IMG/VR virus record: IMGVR_UViG_3300029288_000147
Length of the DNA: 20,000 nucleotides
Direction: 5' to 3' (one strand)
Source: an uncultured virus (IMG/VR IMGVR_UViG_3300029288_000147)
Taxonomy: Duplodnaviria > Heunggongvirae > Uroviricota > Caudoviricetes
Positions 926 to 20,000 of this stretch are shown one piece after another; the stretch's first letter is position 1; every line of letters begins with the position of its first letter. A program made the translations under genes and the position numbers. Below the pieces are notes generated by a model. That model worked only from the letters and a program-made list of their open reading frames with translations. It did no database searches and had not been told where the DNA came from.

Positions 926-959
926 TGTGAAACTCCTTTTTATTTTTATATGGTTATTG

Positions 960-1034
960 TACCCTTAATGAGACTCGAACTCATACCATATCATCTTAGG
1001 AGGATGATGTTCTTTCCAATTAAACTATAAGGGC
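960..1034 (-). tRNA. tRNA-Arg (anticodon CCT), CCA not encoded
   Basis: Minus strand: acceptor GCCCTTA/TAAGGGT, anticodon arm TCATC-CTCCTAA-GATGA, T arm ATGAG-TTCGAGT-CTCAT. Confidence 0.93.
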
Positions 1035-6821: not shown

Positions 6822-7178
6822 TTATTGATATATAGTTTCTAATTTATTTGTAAAATACATTATGTTAAGAACTGGCAAATCACCCAATGCTGACATCCCG
6901 GTCGGTGGCCAATTAGCTGAAACATATTGTGTATTAGCATTATTTATAATTAATGGTTTATTTGCTTTTAATAAAAAATATGAAGTAAAATTATTAGGAG
7001 CCGCTACCACAACTTCTGATGATCCAAAATTTATATTTAAATCATAATTTGAGACCAATTGAATATGTTGAGCTTTTTCTCCTAAATCCTTTACATAAAA
7101 CTTACCATGATTTATTAATTCTAATGCTGTTGACTTCCATTCACCATTTATTATTCCATTTTTATATATAGTTTTCAT
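6822..7178 (-). CDS. hypothetical beta-rich protein, probable paralog of 8578-8874 (possible virion protein)
   Basis: Shares GII.GEW, A..I.L....(I/V)NF, FL(L/I).AN and I.YF.NK with the 8578-8916 frame. Confidence 0.75.
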   Translation of the reverse strand: MKTIYKNGIINGEWKSTALELINHGKFYVKDLGEKAQHIQLVSNYDLNINFGSSEVVVAAPNNFTSYFLLKANKPLIINNANTQYVSANWPPTGMSALGDLPVLNIMYFTNKLETIYQ

Positions 7179-7200: not shown

Positions 7201-7704
7201 TTATTTGTCAATTATTTCTATTTTCTTAATTTTATCTGTTTCTTTTTTATCTTCAACTAATTTAGGTATTTTTATTGTTAAAATACCTTTTTCTAATGTT
7301 GATGTAATATTTTCCTTATTATGATTTTTTGAAAGCTTAATAAGTCTTGAGCTTGATGTCTTTTTTAATTCTCTATAGCAATAAAAACCACATTCATCAA
7401 TTTCGTTTTGATCTTGTTTGTCACATTTGATATTAAGAATATCATTTTCAATTTGTATTGTTATTTGTTCCTTATTTAATCCAGGAACAGCAGCTTGAAT
7501 TATTGTTTCTTTTGGTTCTTCAATAACATCAATTTTTGGATATACATTCTTCATAAAGAAATCTGAACCAAGAAAATCATCATTACCAAATAATTCTTTT
7601 CTTATGGTATCGAATAACTTTGGTAGACTTACAAAATCATAATCGTCAAAATTTTTCATTAGAGAACGTGATACTTCATCGTTATGTTTTACGAGTTTAT
7701 TCAT
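7201..7704 (-). CDS. hsp20: small heat-shock protein (Hsp20/alpha-crystallin family)
   Basis: PKIDVIE...AAVPGLNKEQITIQIENDILNI...LEKGILTIKIPK; start refined to ATG 7704 with AAAAGGAGG SD. Confidence 0.95.
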   Translation of the reverse strand: MNKLVKHNDEVSRSLMKNFDDYDFVSLPKLFDTIRKELFGNDDFLGSDFFMKNVYPKIDVIEEPKETIIQAAVPGLNKEQITIQIENDILNIKCDKQDQNEIDECGFYCYRELKKTSSSRLIKLSKNHNKENITSTLEKGILTIKIPKLVEDKKETDKIKKIEIIDK

Positions 7705-7751
7705 AATAATCCTCCTTTTATAATACTGCATAAAGCATGTATTTATTATAG

Positions 7752-7767
7752 CCTACCCTCTATATGA
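7752..7767. repeat. right arm of the 16-bp inverted repeat flanking hsp20 (CCTACCCTCTATATGA)
   Basis: Exact reverse complement of 7175-7190; a minus-strand TATAAT (7745-7750) lies just inside it. Confidence 0.95.
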
Positions 7768-7835
7768 TATGACTATATTATAACTATATTTTTTTGTATA
7801 TGAAAATGTTATAAGTATATTATAAACATAATTTG

Positions 7836-8185
7836 TGGAGATGGTCGGTTTCGAACCGACGTCCAAAATAATTTCATAAATAGGAATTACATGTTTTCTA
7901 TTTTTTATATGATTCTCTATAGAAATAGAAAACTATAATTGAGAACCATTTGTGATAATTTTTATTGTGATTATCGCACAACACATTTTTTCTCGATTTT
8001 ATAACAAATACAATATACCTACGAGAATCGAAATACTGTATTCGCTTGTGCTATTTTATATATTAAGCAGCAAGAGCAAAATTTTCGTTTGCGTTTATTA
8101 TTTCATTGAATTTTTTACGATATATCAATGTTTATCGACATGCCTAGTTTACTTCAATTTATTCTGTCGAATCCAATTCATCCCC
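7836..8185 (-). ncRNA. ssrA: tmRNA, tag peptide ANENFALAA
   Basis: 5' GGGGATGAATTGGATTCGAC; 3' GACGTCGGTTCGAAACCGACCATCTCCA; acceptor stem with G3.U alanine determinant; tag frame 8092-8063 GCA AAC GAA AAT TTT GCT CTT GCT GCT TAA. Confidence 0.96.
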
Positions 8186-8190
8186 ATATT

Positions 8191-8577
8191 TTAAAATTTC
8201 TTATAAAATAATCCTTTATTAATCCTTTTTTTTCTGAATATAATTCCAAATGATAATTCAAACCCTATAAACCATATTAATGCACATAATATAAAATTAT
8301 ATAATGTTAAAGATAATCCAAACATCACTGATAATATAATAGATATTGTCATTAATGCTTTTGAAAAATGCCACCCATCTTTAAAATAAGGTAATAAAAT
8401 TAAATTTTCTGAATTAAAATACCAATGATTTTTATTTTCTGATTTTCTTAACCAATTTTTTATCTTTTCATTTTTTATATTACAAAAAATCATATTATTC
8501 CAATCTACTAATGCATCCATAATTCCATTAAAAAATGATGCTAAGAATAAAAATATATATGATAAGTATATCAACAT
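8191..8577 (-). CDS. hypothetical membrane protein
   Basis: About three hydrophobic segments, DGWH motif and a basic C-terminus. Confidence 0.8.
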   Translation of the reverse strand: MLIYLSYIFLFLASFFNGIMDALVDWNNMIFCNIKNEKIKNWLRKSENKNHWYFNSENLILLPYFKDGWHFSKALMTISIILSVMFGLSLTLYNFILCALIWFIGFELSFGIIFRKKRINKGLFYKKF

Positions 8578-8874
8578 TTACCTCCACCCATAATCTGTGT
8601 GTTTGTTCATGAAATATGCTATGTATATATTTTTTGGTACATCTACAGTGGCTCCACCCGAAACTATTGCATAAACTTTATCACCTAAAAATGGATCAAA
8701 ATCAACAACAGTATTTGCTGGTATTAAAAATCCATTTGTACTTGATGCATTACCATTAAAATTTACATATGCTGCCGCATCAACAGATAATTTTATTTCA
8801 TTGGCGTTTTGAGCATTTGAATGAGTTGGTAATTGAAACGTAGTTGATAAACTTGATGTAATTGCACCTGTCAT
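8578..8874 (-). CDS. hypothetical beta-rich protein (possible virion protein); coding frame extends upstream to 8916
   Basis: 98 aa from ATG 8874; 14 upstream in-frame codons (GRTIGIIIQGEWGF) resemble the N-terminus of 6822-7178. Confidence 0.75.
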   Translation of the reverse strand: MTGAITSSLSTTFQLPTHSNAQNANEIKLSVDAAAYVNFNGNASSTNGFLIPANTVVDFDPFLGDKVYAIVSGGATVDVPKNIYIAYFMNKHTDYGWR

Positions 8875-8916
8875 GAATCCCCATTCGCCTTGTATAATTA
8901 TTCCTATGGTTCGGCC

Positions 8917-9603
8917 CTACCTTTCTTTTATTTTTGATTTTTTTAATTTATCTTTGTATTCTTGCATTCTCGTATTTGCACCAATTAAGCCATATTTTTC
9001 TAACCACACTTGATATAATGATCTTCTATACATTCCATTTTTTTCACCTGAATTAGCCATTGAAATTTTATTTTTTGATTTTTCTAGATGTTTTTTACCT
9101 TTCATTGGTGATGGAACGCCGTACATAGGATTATTTTCACCTTTCATATCAGCATGATTTTGACTTATTTTAATCTTGTGGTCATTTGACAATTTTTTTC
9201 CTTTTAATCTTTTGCTCACGTTATCGCAAAATTGTTTTGATCTTTTTTTACCCCTTGATTTAAACTTAGGTTTACCTTTTAATGATTTACTTAAATTAAG
9301 AGATATTTTATCTATGTTTGGATTATTAGATAAAGTATCACCACCATTACCGCCTTTTGCTATATTATATCCTATTTTCTTATTTGTAGAATTTAATTCT
9401 TCTATCCAAAACATTTCTTTTTTGTTGAGTTCTTCTTCACTTTCACATAATTCTAATATAGATTTAGAAAAATAAGTTTTGCCATATTTTAATATAGCTT
9501 TATTTAATAATAATCCAGACCCTAAATAATCACAATTATTTTTTGAGTCTTTACCTATATATATTTTATTATTTATTAAATTTGTTGTCTTATATATTAT
9601 CAT
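8917..9603 (-). CDS. GIY-YIG (Seg-like) homing endonuclease with NUMOD3-type DNA-binding repeats
   Basis: IIYKTTNLINNKIYIG, YLGSG, KKEMFWI, GYNIAKGG; GENNPMYG and GEKNGMY repeats; lies directly downstream of tRNA-Ser. Confidence 0.92.
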   Translation of the reverse strand: MIIYKTTNLINNKIYIGKDSKNNCDYLGSGLLLNKAILKYGKTYFSKSILELCESEEELNKKEMFWIEELNSTNKKIGYNIAKGGNGGDTLSNNPNIDKISLNLSKSLKGKPKFKSRGKKRSKQFCDNVSKRLKGKKLSNDHKIKISQNHADMKGENNPMYGVPSPMKGKKHLEKSKNKISMANSGEKNGMYRRSLYQVWLEKYGLIGANTRMQEYKDKLKKSKIKER

Positions 9604-9633
9604 TTCATAAATTCAAAATTATAATATGATTTG

Positions 9634-9720
9634 CGGAAGGTACAGGATTCGAACCTGTGCAGGTGTAACCCTGGCCTCAGTTTAGCAAACTGGCACATTA
9701 CCGGCCTCTGTCAACCTTCC
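9634..9720 (-). tRNA. tRNA-Ser (anticodon GCT), CCA not encoded
   Basis: Acceptor GGAAGGT/ACCTTCC plus discriminator G; anticodon loop TTGCTAA; long variable arm; T arm ACAGG-TTCGAAT-CCTGT. Confidence 0.96.
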
Positions 9721-9726
9721 GTATTT

Positions 9727-9913
9727 TTAAATTTCACTTACGTTTAAAATTTTATAATCACCTGTTTCTGTATCAACTTCTAATTCAAACTTTACTTCAT
9801 ATAAAAGCATACTTAAAATTTTCCAATGCATGTTTTTCTAAACCTGCTTCTTCTCCATCTTCCCACATGCTATCTTTATCTGAATGAAGATATACAATTA
9901 TATTTTTTTTCAT
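9727..9913 (-). pseudogene. small (about 61-aa) protein gene with a single-base frameshift, absent from the ORF track
   Basis: MKKNIIVYLHSDKDSMWEDGEEAGLEKHALENFKYA, then in the +1 frame LYEVKFELEVDTETGDYKILNVSEI*; ATG overlaps the previous stop (ATGA); span is 187 nt = 62 codons + 1. Confidence 0.7.
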
Positions 9914-10203
9914 ATAGGCACCACATTAGTTAATTTTTTAAACCAACTTCCATTAATCTTAATTGATTTTTTATTTTCACTTATTTCTTCAACAATACCT
10001 TTTTTTAAATTATGACCATTTTCATGATCAAATCTATCTCTAGCCCATGCAGGTTTACATTTACTGATATAAATAACTTCTTGCCCAACATATATTTTCT
10101 TTCCATCAAAACCAATTACAAATGGTGAATAATCTAAGTGGGTCAATAAAACAATTTGATTATCCTTCATTTTCTTTTTCCGATCTAATACTAATATATG
10201 CAT
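9910..10203 (-). CDS. hypothetical protein, SH3-like beta barrel suspected
   Basis: IYVGQEVIYI...KKGIVEEI pattern; start probably the internal Met (MKDNQ). Confidence 0.7.
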   Translation of the reverse strand: MHILVLDRKKKMKDNQIVLLTHLDYSPFVIGFDGKKIYVGQEVIYISKCKPAWARDRFDHENGHNLKKGIVEEISENKKSIKINGSWFKKLTNVVPI

Positions 10204-10720
10204 TTAATCTTGCGATCATTGTAGCGAATGTTGGATCTTTTGAAAATATTGCATCACCCATAGAAACCCAATCACAATAATTTGTGTGTTCGCCATAATC
10301 TTTATCACTATTTAAACCATCACCAGTTCTTTGGAATCTTTCTTTATTTGTAACATCAACAGCAAATAAGAACATTGTCATATCAGAGAATTTTACTGGA
10401 TTAATTTCTCCTAATTTAACAAGTTCGTCTTTGCTTATTTCATAACCTGCTTCTTCTCTAACCTCTTTTATTGCTGTTTGTATTTCATCTTCATTATCAT
10501 CAACCATTCCTGTTAATGCTGTAAGTTGAATGTCATCAAAATGACAAGGAACCTTTTCAAAAGAACCTAATATAGGTGTTTCTTTATCATTTCTATAAAC
10601 TAAAACTGCAACTACTTTACTATTACACTTGTGTTCATGAGCATATTCATACCCATCAAAATCATATATCGACAAATAATTTCCTTTAAATAATAAACTC
10701 CCTTTTTTATCTTCTTCCAT
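10160..10720 (-). CDS. Nudix hydrolase
   Basis: Nudix box GMVDDNEDEIQTAIKEVREEAGY (K in place of the usual R). Confidence 0.92.
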   Translation of the reverse strand: MEEDKKGSLLFKGNYLSIYDFDGYEYAHEHKCNSKVVAVLVYRNDKETPILGSFEKVPCHFDDIQLTALTGMVDDNEDEIQTAIKEVREEAGYEISKDELVKLGEINPVKFSDMTMFLFAVDVTNKERFQRTGDGLNSDKDYGEHTNYCDWVSMGDAIFSKDPTFATMIARLNAYISIRSEKENEG

Positions 10721-12278: not shown

Positions 12279-14018
12279 CTAGAATGATTGAATAAATTTT
12301 AATTGTCCTGCATCATAAATAGTTGTAAAATTATTATCTTTCATTATTTGTGATTCTGTTTTATTTTTATCATATCCTTTTTTTACAAGTTTATATTTAG
12401 CATATTTATATCTGTGTTCTCTAATTGGTGTTCTATTACATTTATTAATATAGAAATATCCAGGATTACCCTTAGATATTAATGACATGCCAATTTTATC
12501 ATAAATATTATTAAAACAATTCGTGTATCTTCTATCAGCATATGAAATAATTGATACTGGACTATATAACCTTATAAATGTTTTATATAGCTTAGATCCT
12601 ATTCCAATACATCTATATTTAAAATTTGTTGCAAATCTTAATAATTCATATTCTCCATCATTTGATGAATTATATATAAATTTTCTATTTCTTCTTAATG
12701 TAAACGTCATGACTGATACTAATTCATTATTGTAAAATGCGCCAAAATTTATATTCGTATTTGATTTACCTTGTAAATGAAATTTATTCATAAATTCGTT
12801 AGATGTTTTTGAGCTAATGCATTTTATCTCGCAATTTCTTGCGTATATCTTTATTCCATCGTTGACATCTAATATATTTTTTAATCTATTTTTTACAATA
12901 TCTTTTTTATTTAACCACTCATCTTCAAATATTTGAATTAATTTTATATTATTTTTTTCACATAATTCTAATTTATTCTTATGATAATTTTTGTTTTTAT
13001 ATTCGCTGCTATGCCAATATAATCCATTATATTCTATTGCAATTTTTTTATCTGGTATATATATATCCAATTCATTATTTATTATAACATTTCTTACATT
13101 CCTTCTAATATTAATGTCTAAATTTTCAATAAATTCTGCAACTTCGTTTTCAGCATTAGAAACAAATACCGGTAATTTTGTGTTGTTCCAATATGCAATA
13201 GATTGTTTTTCCTTACTCTTTCTTGATAATATATCAGTTATATTGTATTCATTTTTTATTTGTTCTATACTTTTGCTATGAGTAGCAGCATGTGAATTTG
13301 TCAATCTTTTTAATTTTTTACCACAAATTGGGCAATTTATATAATTGTCTTTAGATGAACTTAACGAATTATATGTTTTTATCTTTTTCATTTGTGAGCT
13401 TAGTGCTAATTTGATAGAATCTATTCGCCCAAATTTATTAATAAATTCTTCAATAGTTGTTTTATGGTATTTTGTTATGTGGGTGGTAAACATTCCAGAT
13501 CTATTATTAATATCTATTGTTTCCCACTTGCACAACGGACACTTTAATGTTGGCAGTACATTATTATCGATTTTCTTAAAATATTTATTATAGTCCTTTA
13601 TTGATATATTATGTATATTGAACAAATGCTTTGTTAGCGCGCCAGATTTATTATTAAAATCTAAAAATTTTTCACCACATAAATTACAAATTAATATATT
13701 TTTGGTCATAGATATTCTTGATGATTTTGAATTTAAACCATTACCAGATATATTTTTATTATGTTTGTTATGCTTACTAATACATTTTTTATCATTACAA
13801 TATTTTTTGAATATATTATCTATATTATTTTCTTTAAAATTACTACAACATTTGAATTGAGCATTTTTGGTTTTGCAATATGAACATTTTGGCCATTTGT
13901 CGTTTAAATAATATTTTACATAATAATTAGGGAAATTAATCAGGTGTGAATTTCTTATATGTTTTGATAAACCCATATTGTTTTTAAATAATTTGTTGCA
14001 AATTTTACATTTTACCAT
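12279..14018 (-). CDS. Hef-like homing endonuclease: multiple C2H2 zinc fingers, Vsr/PD-(D/E)xK-like nuclease and C-terminal GNAT-like domain
   Basis: CKIC..HIRNSH, CNLC..HLFNIH, CPLC..HITKYH, CPIC..HAATH; ELDIYIPDKKIAIEYNGLYWHS; LIQIFEDEW; YELLRFA...GIGSKL...IISYADRR. Confidence 0.85.
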   Translation of the reverse strand: MVKCKICNKLFKNNMGLSKHIRNSHLINFPNYYVKYYLNDKWPKCSYCKTKNAQFKCCSNFKENNIDNIFKKYCNDKKCISKHNKHNKNISGNGLNSKSSRISMTKNILICNLCGEKFLDFNNKSGALTKHLFNIHNISIKDYNKYFKKIDNNVLPTLKCPLCKWETIDINNRSGMFTTHITKYHKTTIEEFINKFGRIDSIKLALSSQMKKIKTYNSLSSSKDNYINCPICGKKLKRLTNSHAATHSKSIEQIKNEYNITDILSRKSKEKQSIAYWNNTKLPVFVSNAENEVAEFIENLDINIRRNVRNVIINNELDIYIPDKKIAIEYNGLYWHSSEYKNKNYHKNKLELCEKNNIKLIQIFEDEWLNKKDIVKNRLKNILDVNDGIKIYARNCEIKCISSKTSNEFMNKFHLQGKSNTNINFGAFYNNELVSVMTFTLRRNRKFIYNSSNDGEYELLRFATNFKYRCIGIGSKLYKTFIRLYSPVSIISYADRRYTNCFNNIYDKIGMSLISKGNPGYFYINKCNRTPIREHRYKYAKYKLVKKGYDKNKTESQIMKDNNFTTIYDAGQLKFIQSF

Positions 14019-14116: not shown

Positions 14117-15829
14117 TTAATTAACAAGTATACTATTATACATGTCTCTTACAATAACACAACCATAAAATTCTGGACGAACTGTCTTTGTTGCATAGCG
14201 TGTCATGATGCCTTTGCGGGGTTGGAAATTATCTGGATCCAAGACAGTTGGTGTAAGAATCAATGGGACATATGGAGCGTAAACAAATCCGTTTTCCAAG
14301 AATGTTGATCCACGATAACCTATAAGAATCTTATTTGTTTGGAAATAAGGATCCTTATATACAGTCCAACGACCTGATAATGTACCGACCTTTTCGATAC
14401 CAAGACTATACTTAACTTCTTTTTCATCCATTGTCATAATTGGTCTGAATGAATGAGTTGCTTCCAACATTGTGCAAATTTCAGGCGATGTTACGATGAA
14501 GTTTGCTGCACCTCTCAATGTTTTCTTATGAATTCTGTTTGATGCATAAAGAAGAGTTTCATTCAACGTTTGATACCAATCTTGTTGTGTACCATAGAAT
14601 GTACCAGCACTTATTGTAGCACCAGTTTCTGGATTTACAAAGTTACCAAGATTTCTGCTCCAATAGAATGGATTTGTTTGGATACCGTTGTGAAGAAGTT
14701 CATCAATAATTTCGCGGTCAATTTCAAGAGAAATTTGATCTGCTAACATTGATGTTAATTCTGCTTCTGCATCGATATCATGATAAGCTGCCAAGTCTTG
14801 TTGAATTTCTGGAGTCCATTCTGATTTAAGCTTACGAGTTCCAGCATTAACGTTTTCTCTCTTGACTTTAAGGTTTAATTCTGGAATTGGATCAGTACCT
14901 GTTCCAGTTTGACCAATTTCGAAGTCACCACGGAATGATTCAGTTGTTGCACGAATCCATGATGCTGAAATATTAGAATACAAGCTTGTATCAAATGTAC
15001 TGTTTCCAGATACAATAAATGTAATAGCTGAATTTGCGGCATCATATCTTGTAAAGTTTCTATATTGTTTGAATATAGGATCACTTCCAACTGAATATAA
15101 TGATATTGCTCCAACTTTTGTTGTGTCAATATTACTCATTGATGAAACTGGAACTGAGATTTTCTTAAGACCATATGAACTTCCAGCCTGGCCATCTCTA
15201 CCTATTGATGATGATAATGATGCGTCATAATCTACATCTGCCCATGATGCTGATTTATAATAATTACTTGTATTTGCTATTGTATTAACACCTGATACAA
15301 ATGGGCCAACAGTTCCACTTAAGAAGTTTCTTGTGTATGAATAATTGACACCACCATAATATCCACCTGCTGGCTGACCTGATGATGATGTATTACCATA
15401 TACTGATTCTCCTACTGATCTTTTATCTTTATCCCATCCACTTCCAGATGCTGTTCCAAATTGGAAGTCAAGATAGAATACAAGACCAGAAGGAAGGTTC
15501 ATTGGTTGAACAGAAACAATTTCATTTGCTAAAAGATTCGCAAATACCTTGCGGACTAATGGCAATGCAACGTTTGACCAACCTTCAAATCCTGTTGAAG
15601 ATTGTGTCATTGTACCTTCAGCAAGATATGATTTTGATGTTTTAATCTCTCTCAATTGATTTTCAAGAAGAGTTGCCATATTTCTCTTTGAGCGACCCTT
15701 TAACCCTTCAAGAAGACCTGTTTTTTCCCAACTTGCTGTAATTTGATCCGTTATTATTCTTTGTCTAGGATCTTCTAAATTTGCAAGTTGTTCAGAGATT
15801 AAAGATTCCATTACTAATTCTTTTCCCAT
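14117..15829 (-). CDS. gp23: T4 gp23-like major capsid protein
   Basis: LLENQ, PLVRKVF, VSVQPMNLPSGLVF, TRKLKSEWTPE, QDLAAYH, EIDREI, YAPYVPL, FQPRKGIMTRYA. Confidence 0.97.
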   Translation of the reverse strand: MGKELVMESLISEQLANLEDPRQRIITDQITASWEKTGLLEGLKGRSKRNMATLLENQLREIKTSKSYLAEGTMTQSSTGFEGWSNVALPLVRKVFANLLANEIVSVQPMNLPSGLVFYLDFQFGTASGSGWDKDKRSVGESVYGNTSSSGQPAGGYYGGVNYSYTRNFLSGTVGPFVSGVNTIANTSNYYKSASWADVDYDASLSSSIGRDGQAGSSYGLKKISVPVSSMSNIDTTKVGAISLYSVGSDPIFKQYRNFTRYDAANSAITFIVSGNSTFDTSLYSNISASWIRATTESFRGDFEIGQTGTGTDPIPELNLKVKRENVNAGTRKLKSEWTPEIQQDLAAYHDIDAEAELTSMLADQISLEIDREIIDELLHNGIQTNPFYWSRNLGNFVNPETGATISAGTFYGTQQDWYQTLNETLLYASNRIHKKTLRGAANFIVTSPEICTMLEATHSFRPIMTMDEKEVKYSLGIEKVGTLSGRWTVYKDPYFQTNKILIGYRGSTFLENGFVYAPYVPLILTPTVLDPDNFQPRKGIMTRYATKTVRPEFYGCVIVRDMYNSILVN

Positions 15830-17548: not shown

Positions 17549-18148
17549 TTATTTTCCTAATAATGTTTGACTCATTAATCTATCTAATTCAATATATTTT
17601 AAATCTTTAGTACTTAATTCTTTTGATTCTTTAAGTAAAAATGCACCTTCGGTTGATGGCTGAGATACTAAATCGAACGTGATCAGTTCATAATCAGGTT
17701 CAACAATTGAAACTCTTGAACTGTCTTTTGGGAATATACTTTCTTTCACAGAGCCAACACCTCTACTTGATACACCTAACTTAACTCCACTTAAAACCAT
17801 TCCTTTAACGTCATTACCTTTTGTTGTAGGAAGAATTTCTAATTTACCCATTAAATCTTTTCCTTGCCACCATAAATCTCTTATAATATGAGACACATTT
17901 GCCAAGTTAACAATAATAGATTCTGGGTGATCTGCTTCTCCTAATGCTCGATCTTCAGCTATGACTTTCATAAACTTATCTGCTTGAGCCTTTAATATCT
18001 CATACGGATAAATTCTTTTATTCTGATTTGGTGAATCAGCACGTTGAAAAACACCAGAAAGTATTAATTTCCCAGTTTTTTCATATTCTTCATTCAATAA
18101 ATTTTTATCAAATGATAATATATTATATTCAGTTAATAATTTTGACAT
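17549..18148 (-). CDS. gp21: T4 gp21-like prohead core protease
   Basis: NQNKRIYP, ALGEADHP (His), GVSSRGVGS (Ser), FDLVSQPS. Confidence 0.95.
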   Translation of the reverse strand: MSKLLTEYNILSFDKNLLNEEYEKTGKLILSGVFQRADSPNQNKRIYPYEILKAQADKFMKVIAEDRALGEADHPESIIVNLANVSHIIRDLWWQGKDLMGKLEILPTTKGNDVKGMVLSGVKLGVSSRGVGSVKESIFPKDSSRVSIVEPDYELITFDLVSQPSTEGAFLLKESKELSTKDLKYIELDRLMSQTLLGK

Positions 18149-18487: not shown

Positions 18488-19141
18488 TTAATATTTAATT
18501 GTATTATTCTTACTCCAGTAATTCTTTCTCGCAACGCTCATTTTAGTTTTTGTCTCATTTGTAACTATCTTACCCCTATTACCATCTCCTATTTTTCTTT
18601 TATGCTCATCACATAAATGCTTCCCATACATTGGGTGATTTTTACCCAATTTTGATTTACTAATGTTGTTTTTATGAAGACCGGTAAATATTCTATTTTT
18701 ACATGATTTGCTTATTTTTTCTTTTGTTTCTTCAGAATGGTTAAATAATCCTCTTGTTCCTTTTAATTTAGATGTTTTACCTTTTAGGGATTGACTTATT
18801 CTTCTTTTTGTTTCTTCTGAATAACAATTTTTTAATCCTTTATTCCAGGGGATTCGACCTTTTAATGAATTACTTAATTTATTTCTTGTTTTATTTGAAC
18901 ATTTATAATTTAATCTGTACCACCCTATAGTAATGTTACATAAATTTTCTAAACCTATTTCTTTTATTAACTGTTTTTCTTTTTCATATACATTTTTTTC
19001 ATTTGGTATTTTGTTATTTTTTACATTATTATAATGATCATACATTCTTTCTTTATAACCTTTTCCAATATAAAAAATTTTGTTATCATTTGGGTCAATG
19101 AGTTCATAAACATAATATAATTTTTCTTTTTTGTCATTCAT
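18488..19141 (-). CDS. GIY-YIG homing endonuclease-like protein with NUMOD3 repeats (possibly degenerate)
   Basis: YYVYELIDP..KIFYIGKG...R...H; HSEETKEKIS, GRIPWNKG, GKNHPMYGK; start refined to MNDKK at 19141. Confidence 0.85.
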   Translation of the reverse strand: MNDKKEKLYYVYELIDPNDNKIFYIGKGYKERMYDHYNNVKNNKIPNEKNVYEKEKQLIKEIGLENLCNITIGWYRLNYKCSNKTRNKLSNSLKGRIPWNKGLKNCYSEETKRRISQSLKGKTSKLKGTRGLFNHSEETKEKISKSCKNRIFTGLHKNNISKSKLGKNHPMYGKHLCDEHKRKIGDGNRGKIVTNETKTKMSVARKNYWSKNNTIKY

Positions 19142-19143
19142 AT

Positions 19144-19992
19144 TTATTCTTCGACCGCACATGGAGGAGTATTTCTGATTTTTTCATTTTTTAAATAATG
19201 ATAACGAATTTTTCTTTTTGCCTTATTTAAATCGTTCTCTACAGCTAGAACTTGTATACCTTTATTTTTTCCTGATGGGCAAAAACACCCAATATATATA
19301 CCATTATTTTCTTCGTTGTCCTCATATATATAATATTTACCACCTACCTGATTACCTTCATAAGGAAAATATCCGTCTTCTTCTTTTACAATTTTTTTCT
19401 TATATTGAGGAAGACCTGGATTGATATATTCTCTTTTTAATATTTTTCTTAATAATGGATAATTTGCTGATTCATTTAAATTAGAATGATTTAATGTTCT
19501 CTTATATGATGTTAATACATGAGTTTGCGAATTTCCATTAACAAAATATACTTCACTACTTATTATTTCTGGTATTTGATTAACTAGTGCTCTATTTAAA
19601 TCAGTTATTTTACTTTTACCACAACCTTCAAGTGGCACAAGTATTTTATTTCCAATTTTATCATTCTTCCAATATCCATTATATTTTTTTAACGTTTTTT
19701 CTATTTTCTTTATATGCATTGGCGGTAATATTTTGCCATTTGAAACTTTAAAAAAAATAGTCCAATTTAATTTATGAGAACTCTCATTTAATGATTCATC
19801 AATCATTTTTTTGTATAAATCAGCTTGATGTTCACCAAATTTTGATTTTAATATACCATATATAGCATCTTTATCTACTTTTTTTCTTTTAAGCGAATTA
19901 ATTAAATTTGTAATTCTCGAGTTTACTTTAGAAGGAACTGTATCTATAAGTGGATGGAATGCTGATTCATTTAATGATTTAATTTTATCTAA
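19144..19992 (-). CDS. hypothetical protein with repeated LNES motifs (possible internal head protein); 5' end uncertain
   Basis: ORF track starts at ATG 19806, but the frame is open and protein-like up to an in-frame TAA at 19993-19995. Confidence 0.7.
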   Translation of the reverse strand, partial: LDKIKSLNESAFHPLIDTVPSKVNSRITNLINSLKRKKVDKDAIYGILKSKFGEHQADLYKKMIDESLNESSHKLNWTIFFKVSNGKILPPMHIKKIEKTLKKYNGYWKNDKIGNKILVPLEGCGKSKITDLNRALVNQIPEIISSEVYFVNGNSQTHVLTSYKRTLNHSNLNESANYPLLRKILKREYINPGLPQYKKKIVKEEDGYFPYEGNQVGGKYYIYEDNEENNGIYIGCFCPSGKNKGIQVLAVENDLNKAKRKIRYHYLKNEKIRNTPPCAVEE

Positions 19993-20000
19993 TTAATCAG

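Follow-up and report, generated by a model that had tools for sequence, protein, structure and literature searches.

The window analysed here is a stretch of 20,000 nucleotides from an uncultured tailed virus (Caudoviricetes; IMG/VR record IMGVR_UViG_3300029288_000147), in which all genes lie on the minus strand and the G+C content is 26.4%. It is the head-gene region of a distant T4-like phage. The major head protein (14117-15829) belongs to PHROG 138 (E 2.9e-71), with best tblastn identities of 41-42% to a Microcystis phage and Flavobacterium phages, and a prohead protease is recognised by PHROG at 17549-18148. Three endonuclease-like genes are found by PHROG in these 20 kb, and the ARAGORN scan of the same 20 kb returned tRNA-Arg(CCT), tRNA-Ser(GCT) and a tmRNA. 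A GC-rich patch, GGGCCGAACC with its surroundings, occurs once in the window. The features at the junction that concerns us, between a homing-endonuclease gene and a small structural-looking gene, are collected in Table 1.

Table 1. Features at and around the junction, by position in the window
Feature	Position	Strand	Basis
109-residue all-beta (jellyroll-like) protein gene, first codon ATA	8578..8907	-	Met1 alignment of homologues; AF2 model
Proposed initiation codon ATA, at the Met1 position of homologues	8905..8907	-	phmmer query residue 4 (I) = P0002 residue 1; alignments
Shine-Dalgarno-like AAGGTAGGG, 7 nt upstream of ATA, including the endonuclease stop	8915..8923	-	anti-SD duplex, -8.0 kcal/mol
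TAG that ends the endonuclease ORF, 9 nt ahead of ATA	8917..8919	-	ORF reading; unchanged in X1 and X2 contigs
Free-standing GIY-YIG/NUMOD3 homing-endonuclease gene, 228 aa, without SD of its own	8917..9603	-	PHROG 314; Pfam NUMOD3
ATG codon 12 (Met12), start chosen by gene callers, possible second start	8872..8874	-	98-aa form in public collections
tRNA-Ser(GCT), directly upstream of the endonuclease gene	9633..9720	-	ARAGORN; Rfam tRNA, 49.2 bits
Following gene, hydrophobic product of 128 aa; its ATG comes straight after the TAA of the 109-aa gene (TAA ATG)	8191..8577	-	SD GTGGAGGTA, -10.6 kcal/mol
Possible distant paralogue, 118 aa, GIINGEW at residues 8-14	6822..7178	-	10-mer rank 2/20,549

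At the junction the minus strand reads AAA GAA AGG TAG GGC CGA ACC ATA GGA ATA ATT ATA CAA GGC GAA TGG GGA TTC ATG. A 228-aa ORF (9603..8917) and a 98-aa ORF (8874..8578) thus share one frame and are parted by the TAG (8919-8917) and 14 open in-frame codons, GRTIGIIIQGEWGF, which run up to the ATG at 8874-8872; the TAA that closes the downstream 109-codon gene is at 8580-8578. Re-reading the minus strand gave the same letters and coordinates for the TAG, the 14 codons and ATG 8874 as the initial annotation had given, and it bore out the accompanying remark that ATG, GTG and TTG are absent from the 14-codon segment. The sole table-11 start codon between the TAG and the conserved glycine at residue 2 (G2) is ATA 8907-8905. 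The initial annotation had placed the TAG where the start codon of the downstream gene should be, whereas the homologues put that start three codons later, at the ATA.

This placement comes from a phmmer search, in which the translation of the 112 codons after the TAG was compared, without length limits and at E<=0.001, with 1,835,955,588 representative proteins. Five matches were returned: the window's own 98-aa call, three small homologues (P0002, 109 aa, E 3.5e-17; P0003, 105 aa, E 9.6e-11; P0005, 109 aa, E 1.7e-05), and one 1108-aa repeat protein that matches a middle segment of the query weakly. The alignment with P0002 pairs query residues 4-110 with protein residues 1-106, and its Met1 falls on ATA 8907-8905. 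The same holds for all three small homologues, whose Met1, as set by gene callers, aligns with the ATA three codons after the TAG; their N-termini read MGIILQGYWSF, MGFYIQGQWEF and MGYIVQGQWQF, and the window reads I-GIIIQGEWGF-M. Residues G2, Q6, G7, W9 and F11 are invariant in 4/4 sequences, and at the Met12 column the homologues carry A, L or I. When all 20,549 10-mers without a stop in the window's six reading frames are ranked against the three homologue N-termini, GIIIQGEWGF comes first with a score of 119, the next one reaching 55.

Because the Met1 of the homologues aligns with the ATA and the N-terminal residues behind it are conserved, the gene is assigned, on the strength of these alignments, to 8907..8578, that is to 109 codons, a length equal to that of two of its relatives. 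The ATA almost certainly stands at the ancestral Met1, and the 11 codons from there to ATG 8874 are, with the same high confidence, coding sequence of this gene; the frame behind the TAG is open for that reason. The triplets GGC CGA ACC form a non-coding spacer of 9 nt. The ancestral sequence "ATG GGC CGA ACC" that the initial annotation had predicted does not agree with the homologues, which begin M-G-I/F/Y instead.

The family has four members, the window protein included, and the genes of the homologues are located on contigs of 910, 735 and 4586 bp. Word-index protein searches gave nothing beyond the window's 98-aa call or the same four members, and the 109-aa protein had no tblastn match among 50,697 phage records. 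When the DNA context of the homologues was sought in viral, metagenome and genome contigs, only distant relatives on viral contigs (L001-L004) appeared; two scans each of metagenome contigs and genome contigs gave none, and contig searches with the neighbouring gene 8191-8577 or with the exact junction 28-mer returned nothing. By blastn, 8300-9800 was covered by phages to 6-10% only, the annotated matches lying on endonuclease genes. A second possible non-canonical start in the window, at 19144-19992, where 62 open codons precede 19806, yielded no homologues and no families.

The initial annotation had also likened the segment before ATG 8874 to the N-terminus of the ORF at 6822-7178, which it took for a probable paralogue. 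The local likeness is real, as the 10-mer NGIINGEWKS of that ORF holds rank 2 of 20,549 (score 55) and the two proteins have GIINGEW, FLLKAN and YFTNK-type motifs in common; over the whole protein it is weak (BLASTP E 1.6; hhalign probability 1.4%, E 0.038). The family HMM gives this ORF 4.7 bits, a value reached by 30/2000 shuffles, and its single-sequence AF2 model is unusable (pLDDT 35.6). On these sequence comparisons, the ORF is a possible distant paralogue and should be called nothing closer.

An AF2 model of the 109-residue protein, built on the four-sequence alignment, is all-beta, with pLDDT 84 and pTM 0.76. Residues 2-16 form one long strand in this model and Met12 lies inside it, so a start at Met12 would be predicted to remove most of the first strand. 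The nearest structures found by Foldseek are Ena endospore-appendage subunits (8pdz_A, E 9e-05, TM 0.55; 7a02_A, TM 0.62), followed more weakly by phage cement proteins (KHP40 7dou_4, E 4.5e-03; Pam1 7eel_H, E 4.7e-03). One PDB match reached E<=0.001, and the similarity to cement and Ena proteins amounts to 9-18% sequence identity and TM 0.40-0.62. BFVD gave 44 models at E<=0.001, and among the matches listed all are uncharacterised and most come from tailed phages; the look-alikes in the Atlas have 88-101 residues and belong to phage clusters without a name. Neither Pfam nor PHROG gave a family match for the 109-aa protein or for the 128-aa protein of 8191..8577. Two distant IMG/VR relatives sit one to three genes after major head genes. 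A head-associated role of the predicted 109-residue protein is plausible, and the label "possible virion protein" of the initial annotation is compatible with the modelled fold and the gene neighbourhood. Jellyroll cement or decoration proteins (KHP40 7dou, Pam1 7eel_H) and the Ena subunits (8pdz, 7a02) are of similar size and likewise all-beta; in the window, the gene lies about 5 kb from the major head gene.

To examine the initiation region, 34 candidate starts were taken and the 22 nt that precede each were paired with an anti-Shine-Dalgarno (anti-SD) sequence, for which a generic consensus was used that may differ from the host's. With this generic consensus, ATA 8907 is preceded by AAGGTAGGG (8923-8915) at a spacing of 7 nt and with a duplex energy of -8.0 kcal/mol, and ATG 8874 by GAAUGGGGA, with an SD-like GGGGA, at a spacing of 3 nt and with -5.5 kcal/mol. 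The same generic anti-SD gave the other 32 starts a median of -5.2 kcal/mol, 6/32 being stronger than the element of the ATA, and 5.75% of 400 random positions reached -6.0 kcal/mol. Of these two starts, it is therefore the ATA and not ATG 8874 that has the better ribosome-binding site, and the TAG of the endonuclease is part of that same site. The odd look of the locus arises because the endonuclease ORF runs to its first stop, which lies inside the Shine-Dalgarno element of its neighbour; that this TAG is in frame with the downstream gene is a one-in-three accident. RNA structure at the junction is ordinary (z 0.52; 143/200 shuffles fold as well), and a scan of 8000-10300 for promoters and terminators was uninformative, with 10 promoter-like sites where 18.1 were expected and no terminator.

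The letters themselves were compared over 7800-10400 with the contigs of four public runs, at low depths of 9.4 and 4.6, a comparison in which contigs hide rare variants and a minority ATG allele is possible. An 8910-base contig (X1), possibly from the window's own sample, covers 7800-9950 with 0 differences. A 1016-base contig (X2), which belongs to a different study and carries a different habitat label, agrees with the window at every letter and without gaps over 7991-9006. At the contig level, none of the four runs has a listed variant at 8905-8919. None of the sequencing runs listed as containing the stretch is an RNA run. Assembly error does not account for the TAG or the ATA, because the contig of a second, independent study has the same letters. 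An error at the TAG had been the concern behind the initial annotation's call for sequencing data at 8917-8919, and the TAG is unchanged in both contigs. Endonuclease-less variants sought in the four runs gave only joints with sides of 21-36 letters and 80% likeness, which were treated as noise.

The upstream ORF, 9603..8917, matches PHROG 314, "homing endonuclease", at E 6.3e-38. Pfam NUMOD3 is found at 22.3 bits, above its cut-off of 20.4, while GIY-YIG (19.0 bits, cut-off 22.6) and SegE_GIY-YIG (21.5 bits, cut-off 25) stay 3-4 bits below theirs. The tRNA-Ser(GCT) gene ends 29 nt before the endonuclease ATG, and the downstream gene starts 9 nt past the TAG. Before the starts of the window's two GIY-YIG-type genes, at 9603 and 19162, no anti-SD pairing at all was seen, in agreement with the account of T4 seg and mob genes in PMC2988022. 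These two genes share only NUMOD-like repeats (37% over 87 residues, E 2e-4) and, for that reason, define no common cassette end. Neither a group I intron nor any other intron family was detected in 7500-10500 at E<=1. The endonuclease gene is free-standing, outside any intron or intein.

The junction is best read as a start codon of a rare type that is already known, rather than as read-through of a stop codon. Ribosomes would start at the AUA with the initiator tRNA and would yield M-G-I-I-I-Q-G-E-W-G-F-M, presumably at a fraction of the rate of AUG. Initiation at this codon is credible because a strong Shine-Dalgarno element lies at 7 nt. In E. coli reporters, AUA initiates at 1-2% of AUG (10.1101/063800). 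In the systems described in PMC5499595, an AUG-to-AUA mutant of T4 rIIB retained about 15% of its translation at 25 C and lost about 85%, and the phage HB-3 hydrolase kept 7.5% with AUA; in an optimised in-vitro context described there, AUA mRNA behaved like AUG mRNA from 20 to 40 C. Reinitiation by ribosomes that finish the endonuclease ORF 9 nt upstream may contribute as well, a share that may be small because this ORF is without an SD of its own. Reinitiation after termination in E. coli drops with distance, with losses of 5-70% at +2 nt depending on the gene pair, and the results at short distances (+2 and +14 nt) are called variable by the authors (PMC10666635). The ATG at codon 12 may also give a 98-residue product that would lack most of the first beta-strand. 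The option of a non-canonical ATA start behind AAGGTAGG, one of those listed in the initial annotation, is the one that gains from the data: the Met1 of three homologues falls on the ATA, and an SD-like element lies 7 nt upstream. That the 109-residue form is made from the ATA we consider somewhat better than an even bet, judging from the sequence.

The chief competitor, which we hold to be possible but clearly less likely, is a plain loss of the start by mutation of ATG to ATA, after which only the 98-residue form would be made from ATG 8874 and the 11 upstream codons would be a recent, untranslated relic. ATG 8874 is a canonical codon only 11 codons downstream, where GGGGA pairs at -5.5 kcal/mol, and translation may begin mainly or solely there, but the stronger Shine-Dalgarno element at ideal spacing is that of the ATA, ATG 8874 having a spacing of 3 nt. 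All five invariant N-terminal residues (5/5) and the frame are intact, which speaks for continued use of the segment, although an intact segment would also fit an ATG-to-ATA loss that is recent; the presence of the ATA allele in two studies tells against the start-loss account. Gene callers in three sources chose ATG 8874. As A, L or I stands in this column in the homologues, Met12 may be a new, compensating start, yet the resulting truncation would, in the model, remove most of strand 2-16. The weakness of AUA in measured systems also favours a lost start (10.1101/063800; PMC5499595, for the genes treated there). A related suggestion of the initial annotation, that insertion of the endonuclease destroyed the original ATG, holds in so far as no ATG remains; what differs is one base of the third codon past the stop, with no insertion junction there.

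Far less probable is amber read-through, by a suppressor tRNA or by recoding, which the initial annotation had put forward and which would join endonuclease and structural protein into a 341-residue fusion that could bring the nuclease into the virion. Its appeal lies in the two ORFs being in one frame with 14 open codons between them, but an in-frame position has a 1-in-3 chance and an open frame is expected from coding sequence. The homologues are free-standing proteins of 105-109 aa that start at the ATA position, and no endonuclease-fused homologue appeared in the phmmer search, which had no length limits. TAG is an ordinary stop here: this codon ends 4/33 minus-strand ORFs, and the other three have a second stop after 8, 1 and 13 codons. 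The CUA-anticodon tRNA that the initial annotation had suggested looking for is absent from the 20-kb window, where the tRNAs are Arg(CCT) and Ser(GCT), with the tmRNA; the scan covered these 20 kb, and such a tRNA might lie elsewhere in the genome. A group I intron or split gene, with the true start at an ATG AAA before the endonuclease ORF and splicing to ACC ATA GGA, was considered and rejected as extremely improbable: a mini-ORF ATG AAA TGA does overlap the endonuclease start and the possible paralogue begins MK, but no intron model was found in 7500-10500 at E<=1, the 29 nt from tRNA to ATG and the 9 nt from TAG to ATA are too short to hold an intron core, nothing precedes the MG of the homologues, and folding at the junction is not unusual (z 0.52).

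Initiation at the ATA, the preferred reading, matters mainly for annotation, as every public copy found is the 98-residue form without the conserved first strand. Gene callers do not consider ATA as a start, and for this reason the public copies are cut to 98 residues; in the public protein collections only this Met12 form was found, the callers of three sources having agreed on ATG 8874. The locus further presents a free-standing homing endonuclease whose ORF ends within its neighbour's ribosome-binding site and leaves that site intact. A bolder proposal, to which we give a low probability, is that the endonuclease has become entrenched: the start of the neighbour would have decayed to AUA, its Shine-Dalgarno element would lie in the endonuclease ORF, and full-length synthesis would depend on reinitiating ribosomes. 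In a variant of this proposal, the AUA and Met12 starts would both be used and would give a fixed ratio of long and short form. If entrenchment were true, exact removal of the selfish gene would reduce or alter the expression of the head-associated protein, and the arrangement would parallel, at the level of translation, the embedded promoters of T4 seg genes and would be a new way for a selfish gene to persist.

Three kinds of known system invite comparison. The first comprises genes that start at AUA, AUU or AUC, such as the T4 rIIB AUG-to-AUA mutant and infC with AUU, which, as described in PMC5499595 and 10.1101/063800, have the same near-cognate AUN at Met1 behind a good Shine-Dalgarno element; by analogy with what these sources describe, the expected result here would be reduced, non-zero initiation with fMet. 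In contrast to them, the present allele occurs naturally, in an uncultured phage, and two metagenome studies contain it; the putative start follows a homing-endonuclease stop by 9 nt and a canonical ATG lies 11 codons downstream. The second is the free-standing Seg/Mob endonuclease genes of T4-like phages (PMC2988022), where a promoter-less, SD-less GIY-YIG gene likewise sits between phage genes, the present one in a T4-like head-gene region. After insertion of a Seg or Mob gene, signals for expression of the downstream gene come to lie within the endonuclease ORF (PMC2988022); the signals described there are promoters, whereas here it is the Shine-Dalgarno element of the downstream gene that lies in the last codons and the stop of the endonuclease ORF. 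The third is termination-reinitiation coupling (PMC10666635), with which the locus has in common an upstream stop 9 nt before the start and a Shine-Dalgarno element between and over the two. Coupled pairs, in the account of PMC10666635, mostly overlap by 4 or 1 nt, and their efficiency falls with distance. At this locus, unlike in such pairs, the upstream partner is a selfish gene without a Shine-Dalgarno element, so that few ribosomes may arrive at its stop.

The spacer that separates the TAG stop of the GIY-YIG/NUMOD3 homing endonuclease gene from the ATA proposed as initiation codon of the 109-residue protein gene, GGGCCGAACC, contains G or C at eight of its ten positions, against a genomic G+C content of 26%. 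Only 133 of 19,991 10-mers carry at least seven G+C, and the spacer occurs once in the window. It may conceivably be a remnant of an endonuclease target. In one contig of X2, a public sequencing run from another study, positions 9986 and 8917 are joined across 8 other intervening letters (depth 3.6). Either a related genome carries the 3' end of this endonuclease gene, or of one like it, beside another site, or the joint is a low-complexity artefact; both are possible readings.

At the other end of the endonuclease gene, which has no Shine-Dalgarno (SD) sequence of its own, the overlapping mini-ORF (see table) may act as a coupling device. SD pairing is absent for both GIY-YIG-type genes (starts 9603 and 19162).

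Features of the head module and late-gene region
Feature	Coordinates	Strand	Remarks
tRNA-Arg(CCT) gene	959-1034		
Hsp20 gene	7201-7731		Pfam HSP20, E 1.3e-15
Phage-borne tmRNA gene	7835-8185	minus	Rfam 117.2 bits, E 1.8e-46; ARAGORN
Spacer between endonuclease TAG and ATA	8908-8917	minus	GGGCCGAACC
Mini-ORF ATG AAA TGA	9600-9608	minus	ATGA-type overlap with endonuclease ATG
NUDIX hydrolase gene	10160-10720		Pfam, E 2.3e-07
579-aa endonuclease-like ORF	12279-14018		directly after major head gene; PHROG 3339 'homing endonuclease', E 3.1e-98; also PHROG 559 'HNH endonuclease'
Second NUMOD-bearing gene	18488-19162		between head genes
Open in-frame codons (62) preceding ORF 19144..19806	19806-19995	minus	no ATG, GTG or TTG

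The open codons upstream of ORF 19144..19806 are directly preceded by a stop at 19995-19993, and each of the three frames contains a stop within the window's final 15 nt (minus strand). By our own estimate, the chance of so long an open stretch at 26% G+C is about 0.004. Together with these codons, the ORF may be another gene that begins at a non-canonical codon, the second in the window, perhaps at ATT 19983, or else a frameshifted gene.

The tmRNA gene, whose tag peptide is given by ARAGORN as ANENFALAA, is flanked by the 128-aa gene on one side and by the Hsp20 gene on the other. The tRNA-Arg(CCT) and NUDIX hydrolase genes both lie within the same late-gene region. The head module, that of a distant T4-like phage, holds three endonuclease-like genes within 20 kb, the one at 8917-9603 and the two listed in the table.
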